Shown in pieces: positions 17,072 to 45,698 of a stretch of 64,000 bases of DNA (position 1 is its first letter; every line of letters starts with the position of its first letter). The stretch lies in the IMG/VR virus record IMGVR_UViG_3300046782_000843. The stretch is one strand, 5' to 3'. A program made the position numbers and the translations under genes. The notes below the pieces were generated by a model that did not search any database, had not been told where the DNA came from, and saw only the letters and a program-made list of their open reading frames with translations. This DNA is from a virus.

Positions 17072-17203
17072 CACACCAAGCTGAGCTGGCCAGCCAGCTG
17101 AACCCTGCCAGCCCAGCCGCAAGGCCAGACGGGGCGAAAGCAGGCGAAACCACGCGGAAACACTGAGCGAATACCGCGATATTACAATCTGTAATGCGTT
17201 TTG

Positions 17204-17457: not shown

Positions 17458-17496
17458 GCATATGTATTGACAGCCACTTGCATATGGTAGTAAGGT
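17458..17496 (+). promoter_or_regulatory. early promoter P1 with dual GCATATG boxes
   Basis: GCATATGT (17458-17465), TTGACA (17467-17472), GCATATGG (17480-17487), TAAGGT (17491-17496). The spacer is 18 nt. Confidence 0.55.
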
Positions 17497-17580
17497 AGTG
17501 TCCTGGTCTCGACGCGGCGGGCACGACGCGCGCCGCGGGACACGAGCCGCCAGCACAGTCGGCACAGAGGAGCACACGCC

Positions 17581-19195: not shown

Positions 19196-19238
19196 GAAAG
19201 CATAGGCCTTGACACCGAAAAGCATATGCAAGTAGAAT
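19196..19238 (+). promoter_or_regulatory. early promoter P2 with dual boxes
   Basis: GAAAGCATAGGC (19196-19207), TTGACA (19209-19214), GCATATGC (19222-19229), TAGAAT (19233-19238). The spacer is 18 nt, and the leader to ATG 19290 is about 45 nt. Confidence 0.7.
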
Positions 19239-21540: not shown

Positions 21541-21561
21541 CCGGCGCCAGCCCCCTGCCAT

Positions 21562-21600
21562 GCATATGCTTGACACCTTCGGGCATATGCATGGTAGACT
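21562..21600 (+). promoter_or_regulatory. early promoter P3 with dual GCATATGC boxes
   Basis: GCATATGC (21562-21569), TTGACA (21570-21575), GCATATGC (21583-21590), TGG-TAGACT (21592-21600). The spacer is 19 nt, and the leader to ATG 21652 is about 45 nt. Confidence 0.65.
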
Positions 21601-26534: not shown

Positions 26535-27521
26535 TCAGTGCAGGATGACCCGCGCGTAGACGCCGTGCCGCACCTTGACGATCCGGTCCCGTTCAAGGAG
26601 CGTCTCCAGCACCCGGTAGAGCGTGGTCTTGCTGACCGGGATGCCCCCCGCCAGCTCGCGCAGCGCGGCCAGCTCGATCTCGCTGCCGTCCTCGGGGAAG
26701 AGCGCCAGCACGCGCGTGCAGTTGCCCTGGTCCGCGCCGCTGTAGGGCACGAACAGCCCCTGCTCGTCGCGCTCCAAGTAGAACGTCTCCGCTGGGCTGG
26801 TGTGGGGATGCCAGAGGAAGGCGTAGTACGGCTTGGCGATCTCCTCGGGGCTGGCCAGGTACATCTGGGTGTCGGCGAACCCGGCGATGGCGGTTGAGCC
26901 CAGCAGCTGGTCCTGCAGGCGCAGGTAGCGCTCGCGCTTGTCGGCCTTGAGCTTGGCCGAGTGCGCCGTGGCGAGGATCGTCCAGGTGCGGTCGCGCAGC
27001 ATGGCGCGGATCTCGTGGCAGGCGACGGCGCACGAATCGTAATCATTCAAATTGCCGCCCAAGAACAAGCCGATCGGGTCGACCAGGAGGAGGCTGTGCT
27101 TGGGCAGCGCCAGGCGGTCGGCCATCTCCATGAGCCTGGCCGTGCGCTCGAACTTGCGGCGCAAGGTCTTCGGGTCGAAGTGCCGGTCGTCGACCATCGC
27201 GTAGTGGCGGATGTCCGGGTAGCCTGCCCGGTGGAACCACTCGCCCGCGCCACGGCTCCAGCTGCGGTCGGCGGCGACGATGCCGATCGCCTCGACCGGG
27301 TTGGGTTGATGGCCGAAGATCGGCAGGCCGTGCTTGAGCGCGTGCATCATGCCAGCCAGCAGCGCCGTCTTGCCGACGTTGGGCCCGCCTGCGAGGAGTG
27401 AGATCCCACCCGCCGGGATGATCCTGGGGATGGGGTCGATGCGCTCGTCAGGGTAGTCGTCGGTGAGGAGAATGGTCGGGGCAGACAGGGCTTGACTTCC
27501 AGCGCGACGTGTGGCAGACAT
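26535..27521 (-). CDS. RepA/AAA_25-like RecA-fold ATPase with C-terminal winged helix
   Basis: 328 aa. Walker A is GGPNVGKT and Walker B is SLLLVDPIG. The C-terminal LYRVLETLLERDRIVKV is wHTH-like. AGGAGG RBS. Confidence 0.7.
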   Translation of the reverse strand: MSATRRAGSQALSAPTILLTDDYPDERIDPIPRIIPAGGISLLAGGPNVGKTALLAGMMHALKHGLPIFGHQPNPVEAIGIVAADRSWSRGAGEWFHRAGYPDIRHYAMVDDRHFDPKTLRRKFERTARLMEMADRLALPKHSLLLVDPIGLFLGGNLNDYDSCAVACHEIRAMLRDRTWTILATAHSAKLKADKRERYLRLQDQLLGSTAIAGFADTQMYLASPEEIAKPYYAFLWHPHTSPAETFYLERDEQGLFVPYSGADQGNCTRVLALFPEDGSEIELAALRELAGGIPVSKTTLYRVLETLLERDRIVKVRHGVYARVILH

Positions 27522-27799: not shown

Positions 27800-28117
27800 A
27801 TGCTCAGTGAGTTCTCGCAGATCGACGACCTCGACAAACCGATTCGGGACGCCGCCGTGCGCCCCGGGCCCGTGCGGATGCGGGTGCAGCCGATGATCAT
27901 GGCGCCGAACGGCCAGTATCGCAGTTGGCGCGGCGTGAGCTGGACCATGGTGTGCGAGTCCGCCGCCGAGGCCCTCGCGGCCCGCGACGCGCTGCGCACG
28001 TTCTTCGAGACGCTCACCCGGTGCGGCCCCCAGCAAGTGACTCGACGCCTGCAGGCCATGCCGACGACGACGACCACCACCACCACGAAGACGAAGAAGG
28101 AGGGCAGACGCGTATGA
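27800..28117 (+). CDS. hypothetical protein
   Basis: 105 aa with GGGAG RBS and a poly-Thr tail. Confidence 0.6.
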   Translation: MLSEFSQIDDLDKPIRDAAVRPGPVRMRVQPMIMAPNGQYRSWRGVSWTMVCESAAEALAARDALRTFFETLTRCGPQQVTRRLQAMPTTTTTTTTKTKKEGRRV

Positions 28118-28617
28118 ATCTCAGCACCTCGATCCTAGGCAGCACAGCCGTCGAGCAGTTGCAGAAAACCGCTCGCGCGGCGGTGGTCGAGTTCGGGAGT
28201 GACAAGCTCACGCGGGGCGACCTGGCGCGCGTGGGCTGCTACAACTTCATGGCGGCCAAGAACCTCAGCGCGCGGGTCAACGCGGCGGTCACGGTGAAGA
28301 GCCTCAAGCAGCTGTATGACGAGGTGCCCTGGACGGCGCTGGCGCTGCCGAGGGTCGGGACGGTGAGCCTGGCGGTGCTGGGCGCGTGCTTCGAGGCCAA
28401 GGGGATCGGGGGGACCGAGCCGCTGGAGGCCTACGTGAAGAAGCACAACGAGCCGGACCAGGCGCTGGTGACCTGGACGACGCTGAAACACCACGAGGAG
28501 CAGGAGCAGGCCGAGGCGCGCAAGGCCGCGAAGAAGCGCAAGGGGCAGCGGCGGGACCAGGCCCACAAGCTACGCGTTGAGCGCTTCGAGGCACGGGCCG
28601 CAGGCGGCGGCGCATGA
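28114..28617 (+). CDS. hypothetical protein with basic C-terminal tail
   Basis: 167 aa from ATG 28114 (MNLSTSILG). ATGA coupling. Confidence 0.65.
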   Translation: MNLSTSILGSTAVEQLQKTARAAVVEFGSDKLTRGDLARVGCYNFMAAKNLSARVNAAVTVKSLKQLYDEVPWTALALPRVGTVSLAVLGACFEAKGIGGTEPLEAYVKKHNEPDQALVTWTTLKHHEEQEQAEARKAAKKRKGQRRDQAHKLRVERFEARAAGGGA

Positions 28618-28991
28618 GCCTGGTCGACCTAGAGTGGCTGGCGAAGCTCACCCCCGAGGGCGAGGGCACCGTGGTGCTGCGCGCGGCGGTCTGCCGACAG
28701 CTGGTCGCCGAGCTGAAGGAACTGCGCCGCATCGCCTATGCCGCGGTACTAGAGCCCACGCCGGAAACTACCCCCAGCCTGACCGACGAGGACCGCGAGG
28801 CGCTCGCCACGACTCGGGATGCGCTCGCGTTGGATGACTCTCGCCTCTTCGCGCAGCTCGTGCATGGCTACTATCGCGACGCAGACCGCGCCGACCGCAC
28901 CCCGCGGCTATTCCTGTACTGGCATATCGGCCTACTGGCCGGGATGTGCCTGCGGGTGAACGCCGCCCCATCCACCCCCACCACCCACTGA
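28614..28991 (+). CDS. hypothetical protein
   Basis: 125 aa. ATGA coupling. Confidence 0.65.
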   Translation: MSLVDLEWLAKLTPEGEGTVVLRAAVCRQLVAELKELRRIAYAAVLEPTPETTPSLTDEDREALATTRDALALDDSRLFAQLVHGYYRDADRADRTPRLFLYWHIGLLAGMCLRVNAAPSTPTTH

Positions 28992-29005
28992 AGGAGACGA
29001 CGACG

Positions 29006-29716
29006 ATGCCGACAACACAGCAGATGATCGCGCGGGCCGAAGACCTGGAGCGCCGGGCCCAGGCGCTCCGCCTCGCGGCGGCGGAGATGACCGACCAGGC
29101 GGCGAGTAACAAGGCGCCGCTGTTCCCAGGCGCGCTCGACCAGGCCATCGCCCTGCGCAAGCAGCAGCGCGCCACAACCAACGGGCACCAGAATGGCGCA
29201 GGACCGGCCCAGGAGGCTGCTGGCGGGGCGATCGGCGGGGAAGTCGACCGCGAGGCCCTGATCCGCACCACGCTCGCAGACGGGCCGCTCTCGTCGACGC
29301 GGCTCCTGGACATCCTCGCCGAACACGGGGAGGGGATGAGCCGCAGCTGGCTGACCAAGCTCCTGGGCGACATGCGTGACGTCTACATGAGCGGGCACGG
29401 CCACAGCGCCGTCTGGCGCCTGCGAGTCACGCGGGGACCACGCAAGAAGACCGCCCCGAAGGCACATGCGCCGGAGCCCACGGTCACGCCCCGCCACAAG
29501 AAGGCGTCCAAGAAGCACTACTCCCAGGAGATCAAGGCGCAGCGTGCGGCCTCAGCCGCGCTGCTCGCCCGCTTCAACACCGAGAGCGCCCTGACGCCGC
29601 TGAACGTCGGCGTGACCGCCGCCGAGATGCGCGCCATCCCGCCGCTGTCGCGCTACGGCTACATCAAGCGCAAGGGCGACGGCTACCTGCGCACCGCCAA
29701 GGTGTACACCGCGTAA
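29006..29716 (+). CDS. hypothetical protein, possible winged-helix domains
   Basis: 236 aa from ATG 29006. RBS is GAAGGAGACGACGACG. Confidence 0.65.
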   Translation: MPTTQQMIARAEDLERRAQALRLAAAEMTDQAASNKAPLFPGALDQAIALRKQQRATTNGHQNGAGPAQEAAGGAIGGEVDREALIRTTLADGPLSSTRLLDILAEHGEGMSRSWLTKLLGDMRDVYMSGHGHSAVWRLRVTRGPRKKTAPKAHAPEPTVTPRHKKASKKHYSQEIKAQRAASAALLARFNTESALTPLNVGVTAAEMRAIPPLSRYGYIKRKGDGYLRTAKVYTA

Positions 29717-29894
29717 CGCGACCCGCCTACAGTGAACTACTGACGAAAGTCAGGCGCACCAGAGGGAAACCCTCGCCGAGGCGTGTGTCGTTCCCGCGCC
29801 TCGGAGCCGCCTTCTGGCCCCTATTTAGCCCCCCGAATGGCCCGGCAGCCTGCCCCACCCGACCCCATGCCCTAACTTGCACAGAGAAAGTGCG

Positions 29895-29993
29895 TTGTCA
29901 GGGGATCCCCGACAGCCAGTATCACCCCTGGTGATGAAAAATATGACCTGGTGTGATAGCTCTACCGCACCCGGCTTATGACCCCTAGTCATA
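29895..29993 (+). promoter_or_regulatory. operator cluster: three related 17-bp sites plus GGGGATCCCC palindrome
   Basis: O1 is TATCACCCCTGGTGATG (29920-29936), O3 is TATGACCTGGTGTGATA (29942-29958), and O2 is TATGACCCCTAGTCATA (29977-29993). TTGTCA (29895-29900) lies 19 nt before TATCAC, and GGGGATCCCC lies in that spacer. Confidence 0.6.
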
Positions 29994-30135
29994 GGCGAAA
30001 GTCCACGCCGCTTAGCGTCTCCTAGCGGCCCTGGACGCACTCGGGCGACAGGTCGGCATGGGTCGACGCGGTTCACTTGACCTCGGTCCCGGCGGGGGGC
30101 AGACTCGCCCCTCGCGCTTGACGGGAGGACGGCTG

Positions 30136-30447
30136 GTGCCCACACGACCCCCGACGACCCTCCGCTCCGCGCGTCTCGCCAGAAAGTGGTCACAGGCCAC
30201 CCTGGCGAGCAAGCTCGGCGTCACCCAGAGCACCATCGCGATGTATGAGAAGGGCACTCGCAAGCCCGGTCTCGACGTCGCGACCGCGATCGAGGACCTG
30301 CTGGGCGTGGCCCCCAATAGCTTTGTCCGGCGGCGGCGGCGGCGTTCGACCACCACCACGAAGACGCAGACCAGGACGACGACGGAGGCGCAGCATGTCC
30401 GACGAGACGACCCCGACGACGACACCGACCCTGGCGCCAACCTCTAG
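30136..30447 (+). CDS. Xre-family helix-turn-helix regulator
   Basis: LRSARLARKWSQATLASKLGVTQSTIAMYEKGTRKPGLDVATAIEDLLGV. I prefer GTG 30136 (GGGAGGA RBS) over ATG 30058. The 3' end overlaps the next gene by 53 nt. Confidence 0.75.
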   Translation: MPTRPPTTLRSARLARKWSQATLASKLGVTQSTIAMYEKGTRKPGLDVATAIEDLLGVAPNSFVRRRRRRSTTTTKTQTRTTTEAQHVRRDDPDDDTDPGANL

Positions 30448-31783
30448 CCCCCTCGACCTCTGGCTCACCGACCGCTCCCGCTTCAAGGTCGGCATCTCCC
30501 GCTGCCCCCGCGCGCGGTATCTCGGCTACCACGCAGGTCCGACCGGCTACGGCTTCACCGCCCGCCGCGAGGCGCTGCCACTGGTCACGGGGATCGCGGT
30601 GCATCAGATCCTCGAAGCCTGCGCCCGCATCCTGCAGCGGTTCGACCGCCTGCCCGACCTGGTCGAGATGCGCGAGATGATCGGCGCCATTACCCGCGAC
30701 TACCTGGGGCGGGTCGACGCGCGCGGCTACCGCGGCATCCTCGGCGGGCCACAAACAGAAGAGACCATCGTCGAGCAGTGCGCGCTGGTCGCGGGCCTGG
30801 CCTGGGTGCTGCGGCTGAAGTTCCTGCCCTGGCTGCACGCGCAGTACAAAGTCGTGCGGGTTGAGGAAGAACGCTTGCATATGCTAGGCGAGGGCCAGGC
30901 GATCATGCTGCGCACGGACCTCCTGGCCGAGCGGCGCAGCGGCCACAGCCTGGCCTACTTCGAGTGCAAGACCACCGGCTGGGAGTCCGAGGCCTGGGCG
31001 GAGCAGTGGGAGACCGACGCGCAGCTCGCCCTGGGCACGGTCGACGCCCGCGAGCTGTGGGGCACCGAGGTCACCGAGATCTACATCGTGGGATTGAACA
31101 AGGGCCGCAGGGTGCGTGACCGCTACACGCCGGACGACCCGCGCAAGAAGCAGCAGTCGCCGCTCTGCTACGGGTATCGCCGCCCTGGCAACCCACCCTT
31201 CGCCAGCGATGACTGGCTCCCCAGTTACGAGTGGGTCAACCCCGAGGGCGAGACCAAGCACGCCTCCAAGATGCACAAGCGGGCGGGCGTGTGGCTGCTG
31301 GAGGAGAGTGACTGGCCGACCTGGCGCGCGTATCAAGGGCAAGACCCAGACCTGACACCGGGGGAGTTCTGGACCCGGATGCTGCCGCCGAGTGTCCTCG
31401 ACAAGATCTGCTTCATCCTCGGCCCCATGAACCCGCAGGCCGAGCAGCTGAAGTCGCTGCTGCGCGGCTTCGAGGGCGAGGAGACCCGCTGGCAAGAGGC
31501 GCTCTGGACGTTGTATCAGCTGCAGCAGCTGGGGCACACCTGGTCGAGTCCGACGTTCCAGGCCGCGCTCGACCGCCTGGTGCCCTGCAGCTGGGCGTGC
31601 AGACCCTTTGGCAAGGACAATCAGTGTGAGTTCGTGCCGGTCTGCCACCGCCATAACGGGTGGGACGACCCGATGGCGAACGGCTACCAGGCGAGGCTGC
31701 CGCACCACGAGCCGGAGCGGGTGCAGGCCGTGGCGCGGGGCTTGTTACCCGAGCAGGCCGAGACGGTCGAGGAGGAGGAGTAA
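30395..31783 (+). CDS. PD-(D/E)XK nuclease, Cas4/AddB-like with Cys cluster
   Basis: 462 aa from ATG 30395. RTDLLAE...YFECKT fits D...ExK. One N-terminal Cys (ISRCPRARY) plus the C-terminal CSWACRPFGKDNQCEFVPVC resemble an Fe-S staple. Confidence 0.6.
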   Translation: MSDETTPTTTPTLAPTSSPLDLWLTDRSRFKVGISRCPRARYLGYHAGPTGYGFTARREALPLVTGIAVHQILEACARILQRFDRLPDLVEMREMIGAITRDYLGRVDARGYRGILGGPQTEETIVEQCALVAGLAWVLRLKFLPWLHAQYKVVRVEEERLHMLGEGQAIMLRTDLLAERRSGHSLAYFECKTTGWESEAWAEQWETDAQLALGTVDARELWGTEVTEIYIVGLNKGRRVRDRYTPDDPRKKQQSPLCYGYRRPGNPPFASDDWLPSYEWVNPEGETKHASKMHKRAGVWLLEESDWPTWRAYQGQDPDLTPGEFWTRMLPPSVLDKICFILGPMNPQAEQLKSLLRGFEGEETRWQEALWTLYQLQQLGHTWSSPTFQAALDRLVPCSWACRPFGKDNQCEFVPVCHRHNGWDDPMANGYQARLPHHEPERVQAVARGLLPEQAETVEEEE

Positions 31784-32007
31784 TGGCCGCACCGATACGA
31801 GACGAAGACTTCAACCGCATCGAGCGCTGGGCCACCGAGATCGTGCAGGCGGTGATCAAGTCGCCAGGCGAGCATGACGCGACGCTGCGGGTGATGCGCC
31901 TGCTCAGCGACATCCAGACGCAGGTTGCCCAGCAGACGATCGACGAGATCGGCAAGCGGCTGCACGCGGTCCCGACCACCAGCACGCCGACGAGGCGCAC
32001 GCCATGA
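31783..32007 (+). CDS. hypothetical protein
   Basis: 74 aa. TAATG coupling. Confidence 0.6.
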   Translation: MAAPIRDEDFNRIERWATEIVQAVIKSPGEHDATLRVMRLLSDIQTQVAQQTIDEIGKRLHAVPTTSTPTRRTP

Positions 32008-32594
32008 GCCCGGTCGGCGGCAGCCGTCACTACGGCGGGCCCGGCCTGGGCGACATCGGCATGTGGCGCTGCCCGAGCTGCGGCGCCGACAACGCCGGGC
32101 CGCTCACCCAGGGCTGTCAGCTGTGCGGAGCGGGGAAGCCGCTACCACCGCCGCCGCCAGCCCCAGCCCCAGCGCCTGCACCCGACCGCCGCTACGAGCC
32201 GCGCTCGACCTACGAGCTGGGCGAGCCGACTTACTCCTCCGGCTCGAATCAGGCGCAGTCACTGCCGGAGTACCAGGCCTGGGTCACTCAGCAGCCCCAC
32301 GCCACGTTGGAGGACGCCTACATGGCAGGCTACGTCGAGGGCATCGCCGCCGCCCGCCGGGCCGAGCGCCAGCCCCCAGCCCGTGAGGTTCACGCCCCCG
32401 AGGGCAAGACCTACCGCACCCTGGTCGCCGCGCTCAGCTACTTCCGCGACCAGTTCCTGGCGGGGAAGCCCGAGGAAGTCCGCACCGGCGAGTGGCTCAG
32501 CGTCGAGGAGGCCAACGCGGTGATCGCCCAGCTGCAGGAAACGCTCACTGGAGTGAGAGAGGAAGAGGACGCCCATGCCGTTCAATCACGCTGA
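32004..32594 (+). CDS. hypothetical protein with N-terminal zinc ribbon
   Basis: 196 aa. Contains WRCPSCG...CQLCG. Confidence 0.65.
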   Translation: MSPVGGSRHYGGPGLGDIGMWRCPSCGADNAGPLTQGCQLCGAGKPLPPPPPAPAPAPAPDRRYEPRSTYELGEPTYSSGSNQAQSLPEYQAWVTQQPHATLEDAYMAGYVEGIAAARRAERQPPAREVHAPEGKTYRTLVAALSYFRDQFLAGKPEEVRTGEWLSVEEANAVIAQLQETLTGVREEEDAHAVQSR

Positions 32595-32796
32595 CATCAC
32601 CGAGATCTTCACGTACCACCCGCCGACGCCGGACCAGCAGGTCGCGTACGAGAAGCTGCGCAGCGCCGCGAAGGACTTCGCCAACGCGATCATCGACCTG
32701 ACCCCGGCCTCGCCGGACCAGTCGAGCGCGCTGCGTTACCTGCGTGTGGCGGTGCATATCGCCAACGCCGCGATTGCCCTGAAGGGGAAGTACTGA
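32575..32796 (+). CDS. hypothetical small helical protein
   Basis: 73 aa (MPFNHADITEIFTYHPPTPDQQVAYEKLR). Confidence 0.65.
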   Translation: MPFNHADITEIFTYHPPTPDQQVAYEKLRSAAKDFANAIIDLTPASPDQSSALRYLRVAVHIANAAIALKGKY

Positions 32797-34232
32797 TGGC
32801 TGACCCGACTTTGATCGTAGAGTCTCCGCCCCGCCGCATCTTCACCGCGACCATGGTCCTCGGCGTGCCGGGAGCGGGGAAGACGTCCCTCCTCGCCAGC
32901 TTCGCCCGCTACCTCTGGGAGAGCTACCACCGCGTGCTGCTGCTCTACTCCTGGGACGGCGGCGCCATCCCGACCGAGCTGCAGAAGCTGATGAAGCAGG
33001 GCCTGGTCCGCTTCTGGCGCGCCCGCACCAGGAGTGCCGAGATGCTGGGCATCGAGACCTTGTATCTCGCCACGCGGGGCTACTGGCCACGCTCGATCAA
33101 CGCCGAGACGGGGGAAACCTCCCCGGCGGTCGACCTCGTCCCGCCCGTCACCACGCTCTATCGCGTCAGCTGCAAGGCCACCGGCGAGGCGCTGGCGCAC
33201 CTACCGGCGCGGCACCTCGTCGGCCCCACCTACTGCACGCCGTGCAAGACGCTGCACGCGGTCAATGAGCTGGCGGTGGTCGAGGACGTGCATCGCACCA
33301 AGGGCTTCGAGCTGGTCGGCGGGGTGGCCTACGACGGCCTGACCAGCATGACCAACGTGGTCATGGAGCATATGGACCACGCCAGGGGCGCCGGACAGAT
33401 AGGCGGCGAGAAACCAGCCTTCGGCGGCATCGTGGTGTCCGGCTCGATCAAGCTGGGCGGGAACAACCGCGCCGATGTCGGCTTCGGGCAGTCACGCGGC
33501 CAGCAGTTCGTCAACAACTCGCTGTCGATCCCGTATCTGGTCGAGGGACCCGTGTTCACCGCACTGGCGATGGAGGCGACCGATGAAGGCGGCTTAGGGG
33601 TCGTCGGCGCCAAGCTCCCAGGCCGCGCTGCGACCGACGAGGCCAGCTCCTGGTTCGGCAACGTCGCCGAGATGGGCAAGACCACCGACGACGCGGGTCG
33701 GGAGCACTTCGCGCTGTTCCTGCGCCCGTTCATCGACGCCCAGAACCGCCGCCACCTGCTCAAGACTTCCGCCTCGCCGCAAGGCCTGCCCGACGTGCTG
33801 ATTGACCCGCTCGACGCGCCCTGGTCACAGGCCAACCTGGGGCTGGTCTTCACGCTGCTCGATGCCGACCTGCGCCGCGCCATGGCCGAGGAGATCGTCG
33901 GCGCGCCGGGGCTGGCGGGCACGCCCAGCGAGTATGGCGAGGGCTTCAGCGTCGCGGCGGCGACCGCCCCGGCGGCGAGCCAGGAGCTGGCGCCAATGCG
34001 GGTGCCGGTGGCGGCGCCGGTCATGCCCACCGCGCCCCCGTTCACGCCGCCTGCTGCGACCGCGGTGCCGACCGTGCGGCCCAAGGTCCGCCCACGAATC
34101 GAGGCCGCGGCGGTCGTCGAGGAGCCAGGCGTTCTGGTGCCGACGGCCTTAGTGGGTGATACGAGGCCTGTGGCAGGCGGACCACCACCGCCGCCTGGAC
34201 GACCACCCCAGCGGCTGACGACGGTGCCATAA
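32796..34232 (+). CDS. P-loop ATPase, Sak4/AAA_24-like recombination-associated
   Basis: 478 aa. Walker A is GVPGAGKTS and Walker B-like is VAYDGLTSM. Long Pro/Ala-rich tail. Confidence 0.55.
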   Translation: MADPTLIVESPPRRIFTATMVLGVPGAGKTSLLASFARYLWESYHRVLLLYSWDGGAIPTELQKLMKQGLVRFWRARTRSAEMLGIETLYLATRGYWPRSINAETGETSPAVDLVPPVTTLYRVSCKATGEALAHLPARHLVGPTYCTPCKTLHAVNELAVVEDVHRTKGFELVGGVAYDGLTSMTNVVMEHMDHARGAGQIGGEKPAFGGIVVSGSIKLGGNNRADVGFGQSRGQQFVNNSLSIPYLVEGPVFTALAMEATDEGGLGVVGAKLPGRAATDEASSWFGNVAEMGKTTDDAGREHFALFLRPFIDAQNRRHLLKTSASPQGLPDVLIDPLDAPWSQANLGLVFTLLDADLRRAMAEEIVGAPGLAGTPSEYGEGFSVAAATAPAASQELAPMRVPVAAPVMPTAPPFTPPAATAVPTVRPKVRPRIEAAAVVEEPGVLVPTALVGDTRPVAGGPPPPPGRPPQRLTTVP

Positions 34233-34370
34233 GAAAGCATAGGCTTCTCGAGTTTTCCCGACCGGCGACGACGACGACCATGACTATCACCATGACGACT
34301 CCGACGATGACGACGACGCGCGTGTGGGCACTCCGCCCACCCGTACATCCGTGCATCAAGGAGCATCGTT

Positions 34371-35036
34371 ATGGGAAAGTCACTGCAAGAACTCGCGGGC
34401 CTGCTCAAAGACGAACCGCTGCCGACCGCCGGGCAGGACCTCGACGACCTGCCGACGTTTGGCGGCTTCACGCCCCCGCCGCCACCCGGGGCCTATCGGT
34501 TCAAGCTGCCGATGGACCTGTCAGCGATCTGGGACCTGATCGACGTCCCCGACAAGCAGCCACCGCAGCGCGTGCGGGCGAACTTCGACCGCGACCATCC
34601 GCTGCTGATCGTCCAGTCACCCAAGGGCGCGAGCAACGGCGAACCCTTCGAGACCAAGCTCACCAACAACGAGCGGGGCAGAGGCAAGGGCAAGGAAGTC
34701 GTGGCGAGTGACCTCGACTACCTGCTGCGCGCGTTCGGCGACAAGGGCAAGCCAGGCAACAACCGCGGCTACATGCAGGCCATCGCCAAGCACGCGGGCA
34801 AGGAGTTCAGCGCCGACATCCGCTACAGCTGGCGCTGCAGCAAGGACCGCGACATCCGCGCCCGGGATGGTTCGGGGCAGGTCCAGGTCGTCGAAGGCAA
34901 GAAGGGCTGCGGCGAGGGCTACTACCAGGAGGACGTCCCCAAGGGGCCTAACGGCGAGGTGCCCTACGAGATCAACTGCGGCAGCTGCGGCGCGCTGCTG
35001 CGGGCGTTCGGCAACCTGGACAACATGCGGGCCTAA
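34371..35036 (+). CDS. hypothetical protein (position typical of ssDNA-binding partner of Sak4-like ATPases)
   Basis: 221 aa with AAGGAG RBS and a C-terminal CxxC...CGSCG. Function is unverified. Confidence 0.6.
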   Translation: MGKSLQELAGLLKDEPLPTAGQDLDDLPTFGGFTPPPPPGAYRFKLPMDLSAIWDLIDVPDKQPPQRVRANFDRDHPLLIVQSPKGASNGEPFETKLTNNERGRGKGKEVVASDLDYLLRAFGDKGKPGNNRGYMQAIAKHAGKEFSADIRYSWRCSKDRDIRARDGSGQVQVVEGKKGCGEGYYQEDVPKGPNGEVPYEINCGSCGALLRAFGNLDNMRA

Positions 35037-35060
35037 TAAAGCATATGTGAGGAGGCGGCG

Positions 35061-35297
35061 ATGGCGAGACGCCAGACGGAGACCGAGACGATTGAGTTCC
35101 CACACGAGTATGTCGCCTTCGCCGACGCTCGCGTCGCCGCCATCGTCCGCCGCTCTTGCTATGACCAGAACATCGTCGAGAGTGTGAGCCGCAGCTGCTA
35201 CCTGCAAGGGCTGTGGGACGGGCTGCAGCTCGCGCTCGATCGACCCGAGTTACTCGATGCCGTTCGTGAAGGAGATCCGCATGTCAAAGAAACGTGA
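35061..35297 (+). CDS. hypothetical protein
   Basis: 78 aa with GAGGAGG RBS. GCATATGT lies at 35041. Confidence 0.6.
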   Translation: MARRQTETETIEFPHEYVAFADARVAAIVRRSCYDQNIVESVSRSCYLQGLWDGLQLALDRPELLDAVREGDPHVKET

Positions 35298-35502
35298 CCC
35301 GCTCGCTGTGATCATCAACTACTTCACCACCACCGACCTGGTGCAGGCGAACCAGGCCGTGACCATCATCAAGGAGATCGTCCGCAGCCGCCAGCCGGTG
35401 GCCGCCCCGCGCAAGTCTGCGCCGCATCGCAAGCGCTCGGGCCTGCCAACCCAGCTGCCGCTCGACAGTCCCGGTACCGCCGGGGCACAGACGGCAAACT
35501 AA
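35281..35502 (+). CDS. hypothetical protein
   Basis: 73 aa from ATG 35281 (MSKKRDPLAV). AAGGAG RBS. Confidence 0.55.
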   Translation: MSKKRDPLAVIINYFTTTDLVQANQAVTIIKEIVRSRQPVAAPRKSAPHRKRSGLPTQLPLDSPGTAGAQTAN

Positions 35503-35541
35503 TCGACGACGCCGACGTTTCGCGCAGGAGGAGGCCATACC

Positions 35542-35823
35542 GTGCCCAGTGGATCGACCGCATCGCGTGCTACGCCCCGGCCCCCCGCCACGCCTGTTCC
35601 CAGCCGGGGGCGGGTGCAGCGGGTCTACCCCGAGCGGGGGTTCGGGTTCATTCGCTGCACCGAGGGCCACGCCGACGACCTCGGGCAGGACTTCTTCTTC
35701 CACCAGTCGGGCCTGGTGGACTACGACATCAAGGACCTGCAGGAAGGCTCGATCGTCCGCTTCACGCCGAGCTACGTCCCCAAGGGCAAGCGGGCCGAGC
35801 AGATCCATCGCGAGGAGATGTGA
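35542..35823 (+). CDS. cold-shock-domain protein
   Basis: GRVQRVYPERGFGFIRC...DFFFHQSGL carries the RNP1-like GFGFI and RNP2-like FFH motifs. GTG start with GGAGGAGG RBS. Confidence 0.8.
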   Translation: MPSGSTASRATPRPPATPVPSRGRVQRVYPERGFGFIRCTEGHADDLGQDFFFHQSGLVDYDIKDLQEGSIVRFTPSYVPKGKRAEQIHREEM

Positions 35824-35826
35824 GTC

Positions 35827-37269
35827 ATGCAGCGCCAGGCCAGCCCCCCTGACCCTGCGTTGACGTTCGGGTGGCTGCCTGCCCCGCCGGTGGTGTCACC
35901 GCGCCGGTCGCGCGTGGTAGTGCCCGAGCGGTTGGTACCGGCGATGAGTGTCACGCCCGCGTCCACAGGGGTGTCGGACGTCGGGTTGTGGTCGTCGCCG
36001 GTGCCGACCTATACCTACCTCGCCGGAGCGGCGGGGAGTGGCAAGACCTACAAGACCCGGGAGTGGGCGGCGCAGGAGAAGGGCCTGCTGCTCTGCGCCA
36101 CCACCGGCATCGCCGCGATCAACGCGGGCGGCGAGACCATCAACTCGGTCCTGGGCTACTTCGACACTGACTCGATGCGGCAGAAGTACCAGGACGGGTT
36201 TCTCAGTGCGCGCCTGGGCAGGCTGTGGAAGGTCGGCGTGCGGCGGCTCGTCCTCGACGAGGTCTCGATGCTCGACGCCGACCAGCTGACCTATCTGGTC
36301 AAGGCGATCGAGGAGGTCAACGGGCGGGGCTATGTGATCAGCAAGTGGGTCGACGACGGTGAGACGCCGCAGCCCGCCATGGGGTTGACGTTGGTCGGTG
36401 ACTTCCTGCAGCTGGCGCCGGTCAAGGCCGAGTATGCGTTCACCTCGCCGGAGTGGCGGCCGTTCGCGGAGTCACTAATAACCCTGACGGAGATCCGCCG
36501 CCAGGCCGACGCCGACTTCATCCAGATGCTGCGGGCGGCGCGGGCGGCCCAGGGGGAGCAGGTCGCGGACTACTTCGTCAGTCGCGGGCTGATCGAGCAG
36601 GAGACCGACAACCACTTCGAGGGGCCGACCATCGTCGCCAGGAACGAGCACGTCGACCGGCATAACTACCTGCGCATGGCCGCGGTGCAGGGCAAGGAAG
36701 TGCGCTTCGACTCCAGCCGCTGGGGCAAGCAGCGCGGCGAGTGGACCTCGCAGGTCCCCCCGGAGCTGGTGCTGAAGATCGGGGCGCTGGTGATGATCCT
36801 CAACAACTATCGCGACCCCGACACCGGGCAGCTGGTGTATGTCAACGGCGACCTGGGCACGCTGGTCGACGCGACCGACACGACCGCCTGGGTGCAGCTG
36901 CAGCGCACCGGCGGCGCGGTCGAGGTCAGCCGGGTGCGGCGTGAACTGAAGATTCCCGCCGATGGGGCTAGAAGGAAAGAGCTGCTGGCGAAGGGCGAAG
37001 GCGACAAGGTCGACGGCAAGTGGGAGATCGTGGGCGACGTGGTGTACATGCCGCTGCGGGTGGCATATGCATCCACCGTGCATAAGTCGCAGGGGCTGAG
37101 CCTGGACAAGGTGCAGGTCAACATCAGAGATGCGTTCTTTGGCACGCCGGGGATGTTGTATGTGGCGCTGAGCCGGGCGCGGACCGCGGAGGGGCTGCGG
37201 CTGGTCGGGAGCCCGAAGGTGCTGATCGAGCGGTGCGTGAGTGACCCGAAGCTGAGGGCGTGGCTATGA
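35827..37269 (+). CDS. PIF1/RecD-like superfamily 1 helicase
   Basis: Motifs are GAAGSGKT, LVLDEVSM, VGDFLQLAPV, EIRRQADADF, VHKSQGLSL and YVALSRAR. Confidence 0.85.
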   Translation: MQRQASPPDPALTFGWLPAPPVVSPRRSRVVVPERLVPAMSVTPASTGVSDVGLWSSPVPTYTYLAGAAGSGKTYKTREWAAQEKGLLLCATTGIAAINAGGETINSVLGYFDTDSMRQKYQDGFLSARLGRLWKVGVRRLVLDEVSMLDADQLTYLVKAIEEVNGRGYVISKWVDDGETPQPAMGLTLVGDFLQLAPVKAEYAFTSPEWRPFAESLITLTEIRRQADADFIQMLRAARAAQGEQVADYFVSRGLIEQETDNHFEGPTIVARNEHVDRHNYLRMAAVQGKEVRFDSSRWGKQRGEWTSQVPPELVLKIGALVMILNNYRDPDTGQLVYVNGDLGTLVDATDTTAWVQLQRTGGAVEVSRVRRELKIPADGARRKELLAKGEGDKVDGKWEIVGDVVYMPLRVAYASTVHKSQGLSLDKVQVNIRDAFFGTPGMLYVALSRARTAEGLRLVGSPKVLIERCVSDPKLRAWL

Positions 37270-38252
37270 CGACACCGGAACTGAACGAACAGCAACGCCT
37301 GGCGGCGGCGGCGCTCTACGCCCATTGTCGAGAACTCCCGATCGGCTACGAGTGGTACCGCTATCGCTTCCCGAAGTGGGAGACGGAGTCCAACCGCACC
37401 ACGATGGTCTACCGGCCAAACGTCGCCGGGTGGCACGCGCGCGGGGAACAGATCGTCACCGCCGCGAGCTTCGCGGGGATCGCCATGGGGCGCTACACCG
37501 AGGAGACCCGTCCCTTCAAGCTGTTGTGCGAGCTGGAAGGGCGCAGAGTGTCAACAGACATCGACGAGACCACCGCGCTGCGCTTGGCGACAAGCACGCT
37601 CCAGGCGACCCCCTACCTCTGGTCAGATGCGGTCTCGGCGACGATCCACGCCGCGCCAGAGCTGCCCCCGCACGTCGTCAGCCGGTCGGTCCTGCCGTTC
37701 CCCCAGATGTTCTGGGCTCTGGAGACGCCGTGGTCAATGATGACCTTGACCAACGTCACGGTCGCGATCGAGTTCTTCTTGCTGCTTGACCAGGGCACGT
37801 CCTTCGTCCTGATCTGCTGCGTCGATGCGAATGGACGGGAGTCTGAGGTCCTCAGCCGCACGATCGCCTACGGCACCCGGTATCCCGAGGAGATCGAGCC
37901 GGAGTCGCTGGGGGGCATCGTGCTGCAGCACCTGTCGTTCCTGAACTCGCCCTACATCAAGTCGGACGAGGAGCGGATCGAGCGTGCGGTGCGACGGCGC
38001 TGCGCGCGGGTCAGCCCCGAGGAAGCTGAGAAGACCATACGGGTGGTCACCCTGCGCCGCCCGTCGAAGCCAACGACGAGCACGGCCGAGCCCGGCAGCC
38101 GCGAATGGAAACACCAGTGGTGGGTGACCGGGCACCACCGAGCGCAGTGGTATGCCTCCGAGCAGGCGCACCGGGTGAAGTGGATCGCGCCGTATTTGAA
38201 AGGCCCGAGTGACAAGCCGGTGCTCGACAAAGTCTACGCGGTGAAGCAGTGA
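37266..38252 (+). CDS. hypothetical protein
   Basis: 328 aa. ATGA coupling to the helicase gene. Confidence 0.7.
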   Translation: MTTPELNEQQRLAAAALYAHCRELPIGYEWYRYRFPKWETESNRTTMVYRPNVAGWHARGEQIVTAASFAGIAMGRYTEETRPFKLLCELEGRRVSTDIDETTALRLATSTLQATPYLWSDAVSATIHAAPELPPHVVSRSVLPFPQMFWALETPWSMMTLTNVTVAIEFFLLLDQGTSFVLICCVDANGRESEVLSRTIAYGTRYPEEIEPESLGGIVLQHLSFLNSPYIKSDEERIERAVRRRCARVSPEEAEKTIRVVTLRRPSKPTTSTAEPGSREWKHQWWVTGHHRAQWYASEQAHRVKWIAPYLKGPSDKPVLDKVYAVKQ

Positions 38253-38842
38253 CGACACCAACTGATCGCCTGGTTCAGGTCACCTTCGTCGTAGGCACGC
38301 CGGTCTTCGTCAACGTGCATGTGCGACAGCTCGGTCGGTTCATTGGTGACAAGCGCTTCACCATCAATCGGGAGCGCAGCAATCGCCCGCGCCTGGAGCA
38401 GAACGAAGACAAGATTCGCGCGAACGACCGTGGGGGCGCCATCGCGGAAGTCGCCTTCGCAGGCGCCCTGAATGTCTACCCGATGCTGCAGTTTGAGAAG
38501 TACTTCGACTACAACCTGCGCCTGCCGGGGGGCGACTTGATCGCCGTCTCGTGGGATGAAGTGGAAGGCCGGTGCATCGTCGACCGGCAGCGGGAAGAGC
38601 ACCACCGGCGGAAACGCAACGACCCGCCCGACCTGCACATCGTGCTGCGGGGCGAACTGCCCTCCGAGGACGCCGACGACGGGCGAAACCATGCCCTGTT
38701 CTTCGCGGGCTGGGCGACCCACGATGAAGTCATCGCGTGTACCCCGGAACCCATGCGCTACGGCCCCGCGCACGTCCGGCGAGACCTACACCCGAGGCTG
38801 CAGATCTTCTGCGCCGCCCGTGGAGCAGGCTGGTGCGGTTGA
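38249..38842 (+). CDS. hypothetical protein
   Basis: 197 aa. GTGA coupling. Confidence 0.65.
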   Translation: MTTPTDRLVQVTFVVGTPVFVNVHVRQLGRFIGDKRFTINRERSNRPRLEQNEDKIRANDRGGAIAEVAFAGALNVYPMLQFEKYFDYNLRLPGGDLIAVSWDEVEGRCIVDRQREEHHRRKRNDPPDLHIVLRGELPSEDADDGRNHALFFAGWATHDEVIACTPEPMRYGPAHVRRDLHPRLQIFCAARGAGWCG

Positions 38843-38960
38843 GGACGCTTCTCGATCGCCTCGCGGTCGACCAGACGCTGACGATGTCGGAGAGCTGGCG
38901 GCGCGAGCAGCAGCGCCGCGAGTACACGGCTACGACTACGAACCAGGAGGAGACGACACC

Positions 38961-39257
38961 ATGCCCTACAGTCGCCCCGACCCGTCAGGCGCCGCCCTCT
39001 CAGACGAAGAGCGGGAACAGCTGAAGTCGTTCGAGGAGGACACCGCCAAGCTCGCTCACGCCATCACGACCGCCTGTGACGGGCACGACATGCGGGTGGT
39101 GCTGGCGACGATCTCGACGGTGCTGGCCTACACCCTGGTGCAGGCGACGCGCGGCCCCGAGGGGCTCGACAGCTACCTGGAGATCATGCGGGCGGATGTC
39201 CACGACCTGTGGCGGCGCAAGGAGCTGGGCCTGCCCTTCGGCGGGCGAGTGAACTGA
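38961..39257 (+). CDS. hypothetical protein
   Basis: 98 aa from ATG 38961. RBS is CAGGAGGAGACGACACC. Confidence 0.65.
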   Translation: MPYSRPDPSGAALSDEEREQLKSFEEDTAKLAHAITTACDGHDMRVVLATISTVLAYTLVQATRGPEGLDSYLEIMRADVHDLWRRKELGLPFGGRVN

Positions 39258-39271
39258 GGGAGCCCTGGTGT

Positions 39272-39844
39272 GTGACGCCCGCTCCCCTTGCGCTGTCGCG
39301 GACCTGTCGCCTCGCCGACTTCGCGGGGTGTCTGACCGTGGCGCGCTGGCAGCAGCAGCTGGCCTTCGAGGCCTGGCAGCGTTGGGAGCAGGAGCACCAT
39401 GTGCGGACCCGGGAGCAGCCGCTGTGCGTGAACTGGAGCGGGTGCGAGTTCACGGCGCCGGGGCCCGAGGCGGTCTACCGCTACCGGGGGTATGGCGTGA
39501 CCGAGAACGGCGACGGCCTGGTGATGCGGGCGGTCCCGGCGGTCTGGGGGCTGAGCGTGCTGGATCACCTCGACGCGCCGGTGCGGTTTTTGACCCGGGC
39601 CGCGACGGTCCTGCGGCCGCAGGGGCTGCTGTTCCTGACCTTCTCGTTCTGGAACGCCGAAGGGCCGGACTGCGCAGTCGGCGCCGCGAGCCGGGTGCGG
39701 ATCTACGACGTCCACAGCTACCGGAAGCTGGTGGGCGAGGCCAGGCGGGCCGGGTTCCGCGCCTTCGGGGGGATGGACTGGAGCTACCACGGGGACGCGC
39801 TGGAGGACCACTCGCTGGCCTCCCTGGTGCTGGTGAGGCGCTGA
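39272..39844 (+). CDS. hypothetical protein (partial methyltransferase-like C-terminal pattern only)
   Basis: 190 aa from GTG 39272. VLDHLDAP...VLRPQGLLFLTF resembles post-I motifs of class I methyltransferases, but I saw no GxGxG SAM loop. Confidence 0.55.
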   Translation: MTPAPLALSRTCRLADFAGCLTVARWQQQLAFEAWQRWEQEHHVRTREQPLCVNWSGCEFTAPGPEAVYRYRGYGVTENGDGLVMRAVPAVWGLSVLDHLDAPVRFLTRAATVLRPQGLLFLTFSFWNAEGPDCAVGAASRVRIYDVHSYRKLVGEARRAGFRAFGGMDWSYHGDALEDHSLASLVLVRR

Positions 39845-39972
39845 TGGCGATCGACGACGAGACGCGGGTGATCTTCGGGTTCTGGCCGCGCACGCTGCGG
39901 GGCTGGTGGTTCTGGGCGCGGTACTGGTCGCCCTGGGCGCGGGCGTGGACACGGTGGAAGGGGGAGCGATGA
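39844..39972 (+). CDS. Trp/Arg-rich 42-aa peptide
   Basis: MAIDDETRVIFGFWPRTLRGWWFWARYWSPWARAWTRWKGER. TGATG coupling and G/C-rich third codon positions. Confidence 0.5.
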   Translation: MAIDDETRVIFGFWPRTLRGWWFWARYWSPWARAWTRWKGER

Positions 39973-40067
39973 TGCTCGACATCGGCGGGAAGCTGCTGGC
40001 GGCGGTCCTGGTGGGGCTGCTGGCGCTCTTGGTCATCGAGTGGTGGAAGTTCGCGGGGCGGCGATGA
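39969..40067 (+). CDS. 32-aa membrane peptide
   Basis: MMLDIGGKLLAAVLVGLLALLVIEWWKFAGRR. ATGA overlaps at both ends. Confidence 0.45.
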   Translation: MMLDIGGKLLAAVLVGLLALLVIEWWKFAGRR

Positions 40068-40396
40068 CCGACCTGCGCATCAAGCCGAAGATGGCCCGCG
40101 CCCAGCTGTCAGGGCGGATGCTGCTGGCCCGGTGGATCGTCCGCGGCCGGATGACGCAGGCCGAGGCTGCTGAGCAGATCGGCGTGTCGCGGGTCAAGCT
40201 GAACCAGTACCTGCAGGGGTCGAGCCGCCCGAGCCTGGAGACCGCGACGCGCATCGAGGATGCCACGGGGATCGGGATGCGGAGCTGGCTGGTCGACGAC
40301 CCCACACCGTCGAAGCCAGGGCCCCTAGACGTGGTCGAGGACCGCTCCCTGGCGCAGCGTGAGGCGGACGGTGACCAGGATCGTCCAGTCAGGTGA
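40064..40396 (+). CDS. Cro/Xre-like helix-turn-helix protein
   Basis: 110 aa from ATG 40064. Contains MTQAEAAEQIGVSRVKLNQYLQGSSRPSLETATRIEDATG. Confidence 0.7.
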   Translation: MTDLRIKPKMARAQLSGRMLLARWIVRGRMTQAEAAEQIGVSRVKLNQYLQGSSRPSLETATRIEDATGIGMRSWLVDDPTPSKPGPLDVVEDRSLAQREADGDQDRPVR

Positions 40397-40434
40397 TATC
40401 TCGGTGAGGAGATATCATGTGATATCATCTCACC
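40393..40434 (+). promoter_or_regulatory. GATATC-based operator upstream of RHH gene
   Basis: GATATC occurs at 40395, 40411 and 40421. GATATCA-TG-TGATATC is a perfect inverted repeat (40411-40426), nested in GGTGAG...CTCACC (40404-40434). The ATG is at 40436. Confidence 0.6.
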
Positions 40435-40435
40435 C

Positions 40436-40660
40436 ATGGCACAACGACATGCAATGCTGTTTCGGTTCGACGATGAGATGCGACAGGCCCTGGCAGCGAT
40501 CAAGGAGCGGGACGGCATCCCGGTCCAGGAACAGGTGCGGCGCGCCGTGCTGACCTGGTTGGCGACGAAGGACGTGGAGCGCCCGCTGAGCGCCAGGCAG
40601 GCCTCAGCAGCGGCGCGGCTGGCGCGGCTGACGGCGCCAGAGGGGTCCGCCGGTGGCTAA
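40436..40660 (+). CDS. ribbon-helix-helix DNA-binding protein
   Basis: MLFRFDDEMRQALAAIKERDGIPVQEQVRRAVLTWL is a classic RHH strand-helix-helix pattern. Confidence 0.7.
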   Translation: MAQRHAMLFRFDDEMRQALAAIKERDGIPVQEQVRRAVLTWLATKDVERPLSARQASAAARLARLTAPEGSAGG

Positions 40661-40868
40661 GCCGGACATCCTGGCCCGCATCCGGGACTGGCGAGAGGAC
40701 GACAGCCAGGGCTACTTCGAGGTGATCGAGCTGATCTGCGACGCCGAGGATGAGATCGTGCGGCTCCGAGAGATGGTTACACCAGGCTCAACCCTTGCAG
40801 GAGAAAGCCGCCAGGAGGAAGTAACCGAAGTTAACATAACTACTCCAGCCTGTGGAAAACTGGAGTAA
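40653..40868 (+). CDS. hypothetical acidic small protein
   Basis: 71 aa. The GTG start overlaps the RHH gene by 8 nt. Confidence 0.5.
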   Translation: MAKPDILARIRDWREDDSQGYFEVIELICDAEDEIVRLREMVTPGSTLAGESRQEEVTEVNITTPACGKLE

Positions 40869-40904
40869 AAACGTGAGATTAACCAATGTTTACCGAGTCC
40901 AACC

Positions 40905-40918
40905 GCTAGTTAACATAA
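40905..40918 (+). repeat. AT-rich 14-mer GCTAGTTAACATAA, copy 2
   Basis: Identical to 16715-16728. TTTACC (40889-40894) lies upstream, and a related GTTAACATAAC occurs at 40830-40840. Confidence 0.85.
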
Positions 40919-41024
40919 CATCCATTACAAGGCACGATCTCCCCTCTTCGACGTTTACACCCCCCGCAATTCCTGGTTATTTTCCACACTTCCCCGACTT
41001 AAGTCAACGCCGGAGGTGACTGTT

Positions 41025-41318
41025 ATGAGACGCATCGACGCCGACGACGCCCACGCCGCTCTCGACGCCCCGATCGCCCGCCCCGCCCCCAGGGAGGAGC
41101 AGGACTGGGACGCCTTCCTGCACGAGATCAACGACCTGCGCACGAGCGGGGACTACGACTGGGCAGATGAAACGCTCGGGTTCATCGCCGAGACCGTGGA
41201 GAAGACCGAGCGGGTCACGGTGGGGCAGCGCACCGCGGTCGCGAACATCACCAACGCGCGGCGGGAGCGCCCCTGGAGCCGTCGCGCAGGCTCGCGGCGC
41301 TACGAGGGCTACCGATGA
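41025..41318 (+). CDS. hypothetical protein
   Basis: 97 aa from ATG 41025 (GGAGGTG RBS). Confidence 0.65.
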   Translation: MRRIDADDAHAALDAPIARPAPREEQDWDAFLHEINDLRTSGDYDWADETLGFIAETVEKTERVTVGQRTAVANITNARRERPWSRRAGSRRYEGYR

Positions 41319-41569
41319 CCCCGGGCGCGGAGATCGGGGCGCCTGGGGGCGCTGGCGGCTGCGAGGACGGCATCCACGACCAGGTGGTGGCGGGCGAGCC
41401 GCAGTATGGCGGGGCGGTGAACATCGACCACCACTGCGCGCGGTGCGGCAAGCGGCTGTGGGTCGAGAGCTGGACGCGCGAGGCCTGGGAGGCCGAGCAG
41501 GTGAAGCGGGCGAAGAAGGCGGGGAAGCAGCAGCTGCAGGGGGCGACGTCCCCTGAGCCGCGTGACTGA
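41315..41569 (+). CDS. hypothetical protein with CxxC
   Basis: 84 aa. ATGA coupling. Confidence 0.55.
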   Translation: MTPGAEIGAPGGAGGCEDGIHDQVVAGEPQYGGAVNIDHHCARCGKRLWVESWTREAWEAEQVKRAKKAGKQQLQGATSPEPRD

Positions 41570-45688: not shown

Positions 45689-45698
45689 GGTCGGGGTG

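Follow-up and report, generated by a model that had tools for sequence, protein, structure and literature searches.

Results

The locus and its genetic context

The window, that is, the whole 64,000-nucleotide stretch of DNA analysed here, covers all but 3,464 bp of a circularly permuted phage genome of 67,464 bp, with a G+C content of 69%; the missing segment falls in a leftward structural block and holds no HTH-like open reading frame (ORF). A rightward early block (~27800-46500), which includes the genes for a Dda-like helicase (35827-37269) and a DNA polymerase (41984-44998), is flanked by long leftward blocks whose products include tail and adaptor-like proteins. Within the early block lies xre (30136-30447, plus strand), which encodes a 103-aa Cro-like regulator with an HTH_3 domain (Pfam E-value 7.5e-16, above the curated cut-off), placed by PHROG in the class of transcriptional regulators/repressors. 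Translation starts at a GTG codon at 30136, located 8 nt after the Shine-Dalgarno sequence GGGAGGA (30121-30127). Only one other HTH_3-like protein is encoded in the window, at 40064-40396. The nearest solved structures to Xre are generic Xre proteins, with E-values no better than 6e-4.

As the first gene of a rightward operon, xre overlaps the start of a gene for a 462-aa protein (30395-31783). This protein has no family match; its D..ExK motif and cysteine pattern (one N-terminal, three C-terminal) suggest a RecB/Cas4-like nuclease. Upstream, the neighbouring gene (29006-29716) is on the same strand as xre; as the first-pass annotation stated, no divergent partner gene is present. This neighbour is followed by a 10-bp G+C stem-loop (29776-29804, plus strand, from the fold), which looks like a terminator without a U-run and separates the upstream operon from the control region of xre. 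No integrase or other lysogeny gene was found among the 30 proteins scanned with Pfam, a result that does not prove their absence, since most of the proteins had no family.

Three operator-like sites upstream of xre

Re-reading of the window sequence bore out both the sequences and the positions of three 17-bp inverted repeats proposed as operators in the first-pass annotation, all of them palindromic and given here without strand. O1 (29920-29936) is TATCACCCCTGGTGATG, or TATCACC-CCT-GGTGATG, with both arms of the C type and a perfect 6-3-6 repeat of ATCACC/GGTGAT; O3 (29942-29958) is TATGACCTGGTGTGATA, or TATGACC-TGG-TGTGATA, a hybrid, as had been remarked, of a G-type left arm (TATGAC) and a C-type right arm (TATCAC); and O2 (29977-29993) is TATGACCCCTAGTCATA, or TATGACC-CCT-AGTCATA, with the G type on both arms. 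The half-sites extend to 7 bp, so that the sites can be written as TATSACC arms around a 3-nt centre. The centre-to-centre spacing is 22 bp between O1 and O3 and 35 bp between O3 and O2. Within each site the arm centres are ~11 bp, or about one helical turn, apart, a geometry that fits a dimeric HTH protein.

These three sites are the sole matches to TATSAC-N5-GTSATA in the entire 67.5-kb phage genome, and no further full site was found in the 3,464 bp that lie beyond the window. Allowing up to two mismatches, TATSACNNNNNGTSATA also matched at O1, O3 and O2 only in the 64-kb window. Using a 12-point score for the half-sites, we obtained 11, 12 and 12 for O1, O3 and O2, respectively; no other position in the window scored 10, and eleven scored 9. 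The G+C content is locally lower, at 0.55 in a 150-nt window at 29876 and 0.595 over 29850-30049, versus 0.69 for the whole window. When the local 200 bp (G+C 0.595) was shuffled 20,000 times, at least one site scoring 11/12 or better arose in 12 shuffles and two or more such sites in none. The earlier description of three related, operator-like inverted repeats upstream of an Xre-type HTH gene is thus supported. The clustering is far beyond chance, and we regard it as almost certain that a dimeric repressor binds the three sites. Phage control regions of this kind are ordinary; what is unusual here is that the partner repressor gene of the relatives is lacking.

Two candidate tandem promoters

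A standard sigma-70 scan of 29600-30300 found no promoter. We therefore applied a strict rule fitted to this phage, in which the -35 hexamer starts with TTG and matches at least five of six positions, the spacer is 16-19 nt, and the -10 hexamer has the form [T/C]AnnnT with at least three of six matches. This rule gave eight hits in 64 kb, all intergenic, correctly oriented and placed before genes: seven on the plus strand (17467, 19209, 21570, 27727, 29895, 30077 and 45722) and one on the minus strand (6797). Shuffles of the whole window gave 3.3 hits, versus the 8 observed. Shuffles of the 419-nt spacer upstream of xre, which holds two of the hits, gave at least one plus-strand hit in 2% of cases and at least two in 0.03% (0.0003). 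Given the rarity of such hits in the shuffles, xre has two credible tandem promoters.

The distal candidate, P1 (29895-29922, plus strand), consists of a -35 hexamer TTGTCA (29895-29900), a 16-nt spacer that contains GGGGATCCCC, and a predicted -10 hexamer CAGTAT (29917-29922) that overlaps the first three nucleotides (TAT) of O1. The first-pass annotation had already singled out TTGTCA as a -35-like element, which we find credible, and had correctly placed it 19 nt before the TATCAC of O1. The better -10 element, however, is CAGTAT at 16 nt, and we have replaced the TTGTCA-N19-TATCAC arrangement with TTGTCA-N16-CAGTAT. From this position we infer a P1 start near 29929, within O1, in which case O3 would span about +13 to +29 and O2 about +48 to +64.

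The proximal candidate, P2 (30077-30105, plus strand), 85 bp beyond P1, reads TTGACC-N17-CAGACT and has no TATSAC site, only a lone half-site-like GTTCAC that abuts its -35 hexamer. It is the positional equivalent of the promoters of cro-like genes in related phages (TTGACG-17-CACACT, TTGACA-18-TAGAGT and TTGACA-18-TACTGT). The -10 hexamers of both P1 and P2 are weak, at three of six matches each. On the minus strand, the intergenic region before xre has no promoter by the strict rule; the best leftward candidate within the array pairs the -10 hexamer TATTTT (complement of 29938-29943) with GGTAGA at -35, and was rejected.

Other elements in the control region

The first-pass annotation had also read the palindrome GGGGATCCCC (29901-29910), directly after TTGTCA in the P1 spacer, as an echo of a box-in-spacer design of the early promoters. 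With up to one mismatch, this sequence has 4 matches in the window, versus 5.0 expected in 69% G+C DNA, and it was rejected as a meaningful box. The remark is nevertheless true of the phage, since four early promoters carry GCATATGC in their spacers, but these seem to form a different regulon. Around GGGGATCCCC there is an imperfect 23-nt hairpin or palindrome, GTTGTCAGGGGATCCCCGACAGC (29894-29916, without strand, from the fold), which together with a small neighbouring stem folds at -16.7 kcal/mol (z -2.4). The RNA folds of 29994-30076 and 30106-30140 were no better than those of shuffled sequences, and an Rfam search of 29000-31000 gave no match.

Two short ORFs in this region were set aside. 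A 51-codon minus-strand ORF (29882-29727) was considered as a hidden divergent partner and rejected by our own reading: it has no Shine-Dalgarno sequence, a third-position G+C content of ~69% versus 80-94% in real genes, and several AGG, CTA and AAT codons. A 15-codon mini-ORF from the ATG at 29934 lacks a ribosome-binding site and is taken as chance.

Close relatives of Xre

A search of 5.8 billion proteins returned two relatives of Xre only. One (P0001) is from this very phage; the other (P0002), with 81% identity, is encoded on a 906-bp contig, L005, which begins between O1 and O3. Conservation of the sites alongside the regulator can thus be followed in this single diverged relative, and there O3 and O2 are kept while the contig ends before O1. 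L005 O3 is TATCACCTGGTGTGATA, in which a G-to-C change at the degenerate arm position yields a perfect C-type palindrome, and in L005 O2 the central base alone differs; with three substitutions in 57 nt, the retention of these sites carries little statistical weight. Both P2 hexamers are unchanged in L005. The segment 30058-30135 is probably non-coding, and L005 has insertions of 1 nt and 2 nt there.

The HTH-coding core of xre (30187-30286) is only 70-82% identical to that of L005, versus ~95-100% for its flanks, the sites and the next gene, so that the regulator changes faster than its supposed targets. In the recognition helix Q, S and M are kept, and T34L, I35V and K39A are changed. As an observation in its own right, the divergent core suggests that the regulator either evolves fast over a short stretch or has received a small patch by recombination. 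Other samples contributed ten contigs of this phage, which match the window throughout the covered parts of 29595-30455, except for three bases at one contig end; being so nearly identical, they give no comparative power.

The control slot in sister phages

Searches of reference collections gave no context of host or close relative. Blastn of 29000-31000 against the INPHARED phages found no match; tblastn against the same set found none for the 462-aa protein and distant hits only for the DNA polymerase; and a profile scan of reference genome contigs with the 462-aa alignment found no relative, which leaves the phage without a host or prophage context. In IMG/VR (complete contigs of ~70 kb) and soil metagenomes, the 462-aa protein does pick out about a dozen distinct related loci. 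These are colinear with the window from the minus-strand AAA_25 gene (26535-27521) onwards, and the window resembles the sister-phage module in that a cro-like HTH gene immediately precedes the conserved gene for the 462-aa protein. Xre scored 39.3 bits against the profile of the relatives' cro-like proteins, versus 20.8 against that of their repressors, and is thus the diverged counterpart of the cro-like gene product.

Three configurations are seen at the slot in front of the 462-aa gene. In the first (L001/L006/L015, L002/L012/L016, L003/L014/L017, L007/L018, L011, L019 and L021), a divergent CI-like HTH repressor of 170-235 aa is paired with a rightward cro-like HTH gene. In the second (the window, L008 and L013), the cro-like gene stands alone behind an upstream spacer of 300-420 bp. 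In the third (L009 and L010), there is no HTH gene. A 29006-type protein is present in every relative that has a regulatory module; in L009/L010 (~4100-5040), the HTH module and the 29006-type gene are both missing and the 27800-type gene almost directly precedes the 462-aa gene.

The divergent spacers of the two-gene modules all carry sites of the form TATCAC-N5-GTCATC(AC). Most repressor loci have sites scoring at least 11/12, and L021 has a variant with two at 10/12; such sites occur nowhere else in the 9-11 kb of the wholly scanned loci (for L001-L003 the spacer alone was scanned, and their duplicates L015-L017 were scanned whole). Written as TATCAC-N5-GTCATCAC, these sites occupy the spacer and -10 element of the leftward repressor promoter, TTGCnn-N17-TAnnnT, which was read from the sequences and was found by rule in L007 and L019. 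In L001 a symmetric site, CATCAC-TTGAC-GTGATA, also lies over the -35 hexamer of the cro-like promoter. From their occurrence in these spacers, TATCAC and GTSAT words at 5-nt spacing are the operator vocabulary of the phage lineage.

The window thus shares with the sister modules (L001-L003, L007, L011, L019 and L021) the slot itself, flanked by the 29006-type gene and the 462-aa gene, a homologous cro-like HTH gene (39 bits), a TTGAC(A/G/C)-N17/18 promoter and the TATCAC/GTSAT words at 5-nt spacing. It differs from them in that those modules have the divergent 170-235-aa CI-like repressor and asymmetric sites at its leftward promoter, whereas in the window the sites are symmetric (TATSACC on both arms), lack the GTCATCAC arm, are not associated with a leftward promoter and lie instead at a rightward one. 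Neither the window nor the 3.46 kb beyond it yielded a homologue of the repressor; the repressor profile, which has the conserved motif SQREFA..LGVTQGAVSYLLAEKRR, matched only the HTH of Xre in the window, at 19.6 bits. At the DNA level, the intergenic region of the window shares with the relatives chance-level short words only. None of the other repressor-less loci has a site scoring at least 11/12, though L008, L013 and L026 have cro-like genes. TATSAC sites are absent from L008 and L013; L013 has palindromes built on AGTCAT/ATGACT at ~76 and ~190 nt upstream of its promoter.

Comparison with the lambda operators and with other phages

The first-pass annotation had pointed out that TATCAC is the consensus half-site of the lambda operators. 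The consensus lambda operator is TAtCACCGCcaGTGaTA (PMC10742460), and its half-site is identical to the window half-site TATCACC. By our own count, O1 matches the consensus at 13 of 17 positions. The likeness extends to the layout, since lambda OR and OL each have three 17-bp pseudo-palindromic sites about two helical turns apart (22 and 35 bp in the window), and in lambda, too, the regulator gene cro heads the rightward early/replication operon. Lambda CI and Cro read TATC(AC) with the Q-S residues of the recognition helix, and Xre has Q-S at the same place. This pair opens the recognition helix in all five aligned sequences (three of the Xre type and two cro-like, from L006 and L008), and by our own reading the NQS motif is found in nine sequences of the cro-like profile as well.

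The differences are equally plain. Unlike lambda, the window has neither a divergent repressor gene nor a pair of divergent promoters sharing sites; a single rightward promoter has all three sites either on it or beyond it, and is followed by a second promoter without a site. Xre has no specific similarity to lambda Cro or CI, and this 69% G+C soil phage is unrelated to lambda in both lineage and host. Q-S are the commonest residues at the start of the recognition helix in HTH_3 proteins generally, and the lambda resemblance is therefore a common solution and not a sign of kinship. In keeping with the first-pass annotation, we think it best to attribute the likeness of the half-sites to convergence, or to what Q-S recognition helices prefer in general.

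Palindromic operators for Xre- and Cro-type proteins are textbook knowledge, and the same design is common in phages at large. A scan of IMG/VR for pairs of TATSAC-N5-GTSAT sites separated by 4-34 nt found 79 loci, well above a rough estimate of a few by chance. In 44 of the 79 an ORF matching the Xre/cro-like profile lay within 450 bp, and the pair was often located between divergent HTH genes. Many of these loci are on prophage-like contigs of low G+C content, where as many as five TATCAC..GTGATA sites stand beside an HTH gene or between two divergent ones. Because such pairs beside HTH genes are common in IMG/VR phages, the window array belongs to a known kind. Like the window, the TATCAC-N5-GTGATA clusters (L050-type and L077) have 2-5 sites within ~100 bp beside Xre-type genes. 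In the high-G+C locus L077, the GTGATA arm runs into the promoter -10 element on each side of the HTH gene, much as the TAT of O1 merges with the -10 element of P1. Unlike the window array, the clearest of these clusters (L062, L075 and L077) lie between two divergent genes, and their sequence is unrelated to that of the window phage.

Other features of the window

The 8-bp palindrome GCATATGC lies in the spacers of four strong early promoters (TTGACA-N18/19-TAnnnT), sometimes just upstream too, with copies in 17450-17500, 19209-19238, 21560-21600 and 45700-45750 and also at 35041 and 34236; these promoters seem to make up a regulon of their own. A perfect 16-bp palindrome, GATATCATGTGATATC (40411-40426), with an extra copy of GTGATATC within 40390-40435, lies after the second HTH_3 gene (40064-40396) and before a small gene without a family match (40436-40660), and is probably another operator. 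Both of the repeated boxes, GCATATGC and GATATC, are thus located at genes other than xre.

Several stretches of low G+C content or low coding density were also seen. In the segment 26300-26500 (~46-50% G+C), GGGACT(TT) occurs six times or more, on either strand, and the segment may be an origin or iteron region; it adjoins the leftward AAA_25 gene, whose product has a weak C-terminal HTH_IclR match (E-value 0.0044). A related word, GGCGAAAGTCCAC, lies directly 3' of O2 (29994-30006), and L014 has an exact copy of a 14-mer, AGGCGAAAGTCCAC, at 1243-1256. The lowest G+C content in the window (45%) is found at 40780-41020, with repeats of (CTA)GTTAACATAA; a 13-mer from this segment, CTAGTTAACATAA, recurs at 16706 (within 16700-16725), in the long non-coding stretch. 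Upstream of the first rightward promoter, ~1.3 kb (16260-17580) has no convincing gene and is crowded with short direct repeats such as GGTCGAGCTG and GCTGAGCTGG.

Two further products of the early block have domain matches. The 73-aa protein encoded at 32575-32796 has an Acb2/Tad1 hairpin domain (Pfam PF24729, E-value 2.7e-11) and, by the name of the family, is a candidate sponge for the signalling nucleotides of bacterial defence. A cold-shock-domain protein (Pfam CSD, E-value 4e-10) is encoded at 35542-35823, just before the Dda-like helicase gene.

Discussion

A lambda-style switch requires two regulators and two divergent promoters that share operators. The first-pass annotation had seen in the three sites next to an HTH gene the makings of such a switch, and this part of its proposal is not supported: only one HTH gene adjoins the sites, and the complete genome has neither a divergent partner gene nor a homologue of the CI-like repressor that sister phages have in this slot. 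In our reading the system is not a bistable switch of two regulators.

With confidence a little better than even, we favour instead the reading that O1, O3 and O2 are operators for a dimeric HTH protein, likely the adjacent Xre, through which P1 would be repressed as Xre accumulates, with P2 providing a basal level of transcription; both the identity of the binder and the sign of regulation are what we infer from the layout of the region. The array would then be the control region of the rightward early operon, that is, of xre and the gene for the nuclease-like 462-aa protein, with the Dda-like helicase and DNA polymerase genes further downstream. Transcription to xre would start at the two tandem promoters. 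Accumulating Xre would fill the three operators, and the filled operators would block initiation at P1 and also obstruct any read-through from the upstream operon, so that early expression would drop to the level set by P2, a form of Cro-like negative autoregulation. As binder, Xre is the most economical choice, in view of its adjacency, its HTH_3 domain, the Q-S residues of its recognition helix and its position as the counterpart of the cro-like gene. Several points weigh against this reading: P2 would escape control; both -10 hexamers are weak, and the standard sigma-70 scan gave no promoter in the region; the HTH-coding core differs more between the window and L005 than do its supposed targets; and in sister phages the TATCAC-type sites track the divergent repressor and not the cro-like gene.

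The last of these points is also central to the main rival explanation, which we consider unlikely: the sites would be operators orphaned from a switch whose divergent CI-like repressor, present in the ancestor, was deleted or never came in with the module, and they would now be either leftovers or recognised mainly by a repressor supplied in trans, such as that of a related resident prophage, as an immunity target. The array sits where the sister phages have their operator-laden repressor promoter, between the homologue of the 29006-29716 gene and the cro-like promoter; the complete genome has no repressor homologue; and GTGATACT, read on the lower strand of O1, recurs in the -10 region of several repressor promoters. 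Without selection, however, this genome would be unlikely to retain three palindromes that are perfect or nearly so. The window sites, moreover, are symmetric and without the conserved GTCATCAC arm, no DNA homology to the relatives can be detected in the region, and O1 is aligned with a rightward promoter, its lower strand offering no acceptable -35 element. Chance, as the origin of a functionless palindrome cluster, could draw on the locally A+T-richer spacer, where the G+C content falls to 0.55-0.595, but not one of the 20,000 local shuffles gave even two sites of such quality; its probability is practically negligible, and it is effectively refuted.

If the sites are functional, they might be bound by another phage protein, a rather improbable alternative whose candidates are the HTH_3 protein 40064-40396, the small protein 40436-40660 and the protein 29006-29716, which has a winged-helix-like C-terminus by eye. 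The first of these is, besides Xre, the only HTH_3-like protein of the window, and exact TATCACC/TATCACA words occur once each beside its gene, at 40392 and 40418; these words, however, belong to the palindrome GATATCA-TG-TGATATC and have no partner arm at 5-nt spacing, and with no full site elsewhere a distant regulator would have its single target here. The 29006-29716 protein is adjacent to the array and accompanies the regulatory module in every relative that has one, but L008, L013 and L024 keep this type of protein without TATSAC sites. Equally, the sites might not block P1 at all and might instead influence P2 from afar, by activating it from upstream or by looping, which we regard as very unlikely. 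P2 is the conserved counterpart of the relatives' cro-like promoter and has a weak -10 element; the repressor-less L013 has its palindromes upstream of its promoter; and GTTCAC abuts the P2 -35 hexamer in the position where L001 has its full CATCAC-TTGAC-GTGATA site. Against action at a distance, the distances from the site centres to the downstream start inferred for P2 are by our estimate ~127, 162 and 184 bp, too far for direct contact with RNA polymerase, and no second full site is present near P2 to close a loop.

Returning to the favoured reading, repression of P1 by Xre, we put forward a further proposal more tentatively: that in this phage a CI/Cro-type switch exists naturally in a Cro-only form, its operators having passed from the service of a leftward repressor promoter to that of an early promoter that runs rightward and limits itself. 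If this were true, the lineage would offer snapshots of a lysogeny switch being lost or rebuilt, in which the DNA-binding core of the regulator diverges fast (70-82% identity) and the sites stay fixed. The type of element is well known, and the notable point is a local one: in a single lineage, the same slot holds a repressor with a cro-like gene, a cro-like gene alone, or neither. If confirmed, the array would add a clean and compact operator-regulator pair, comprising three sites and a regulator of 103 aa together with its two tandem promoters, from an uncultured lineage of high-G+C soil phages without cultured relatives, and the sister genomes, with and without a CI-like repressor in the one slot, would provide a natural comparison for the gain, loss and simplification of lysogeny modules.
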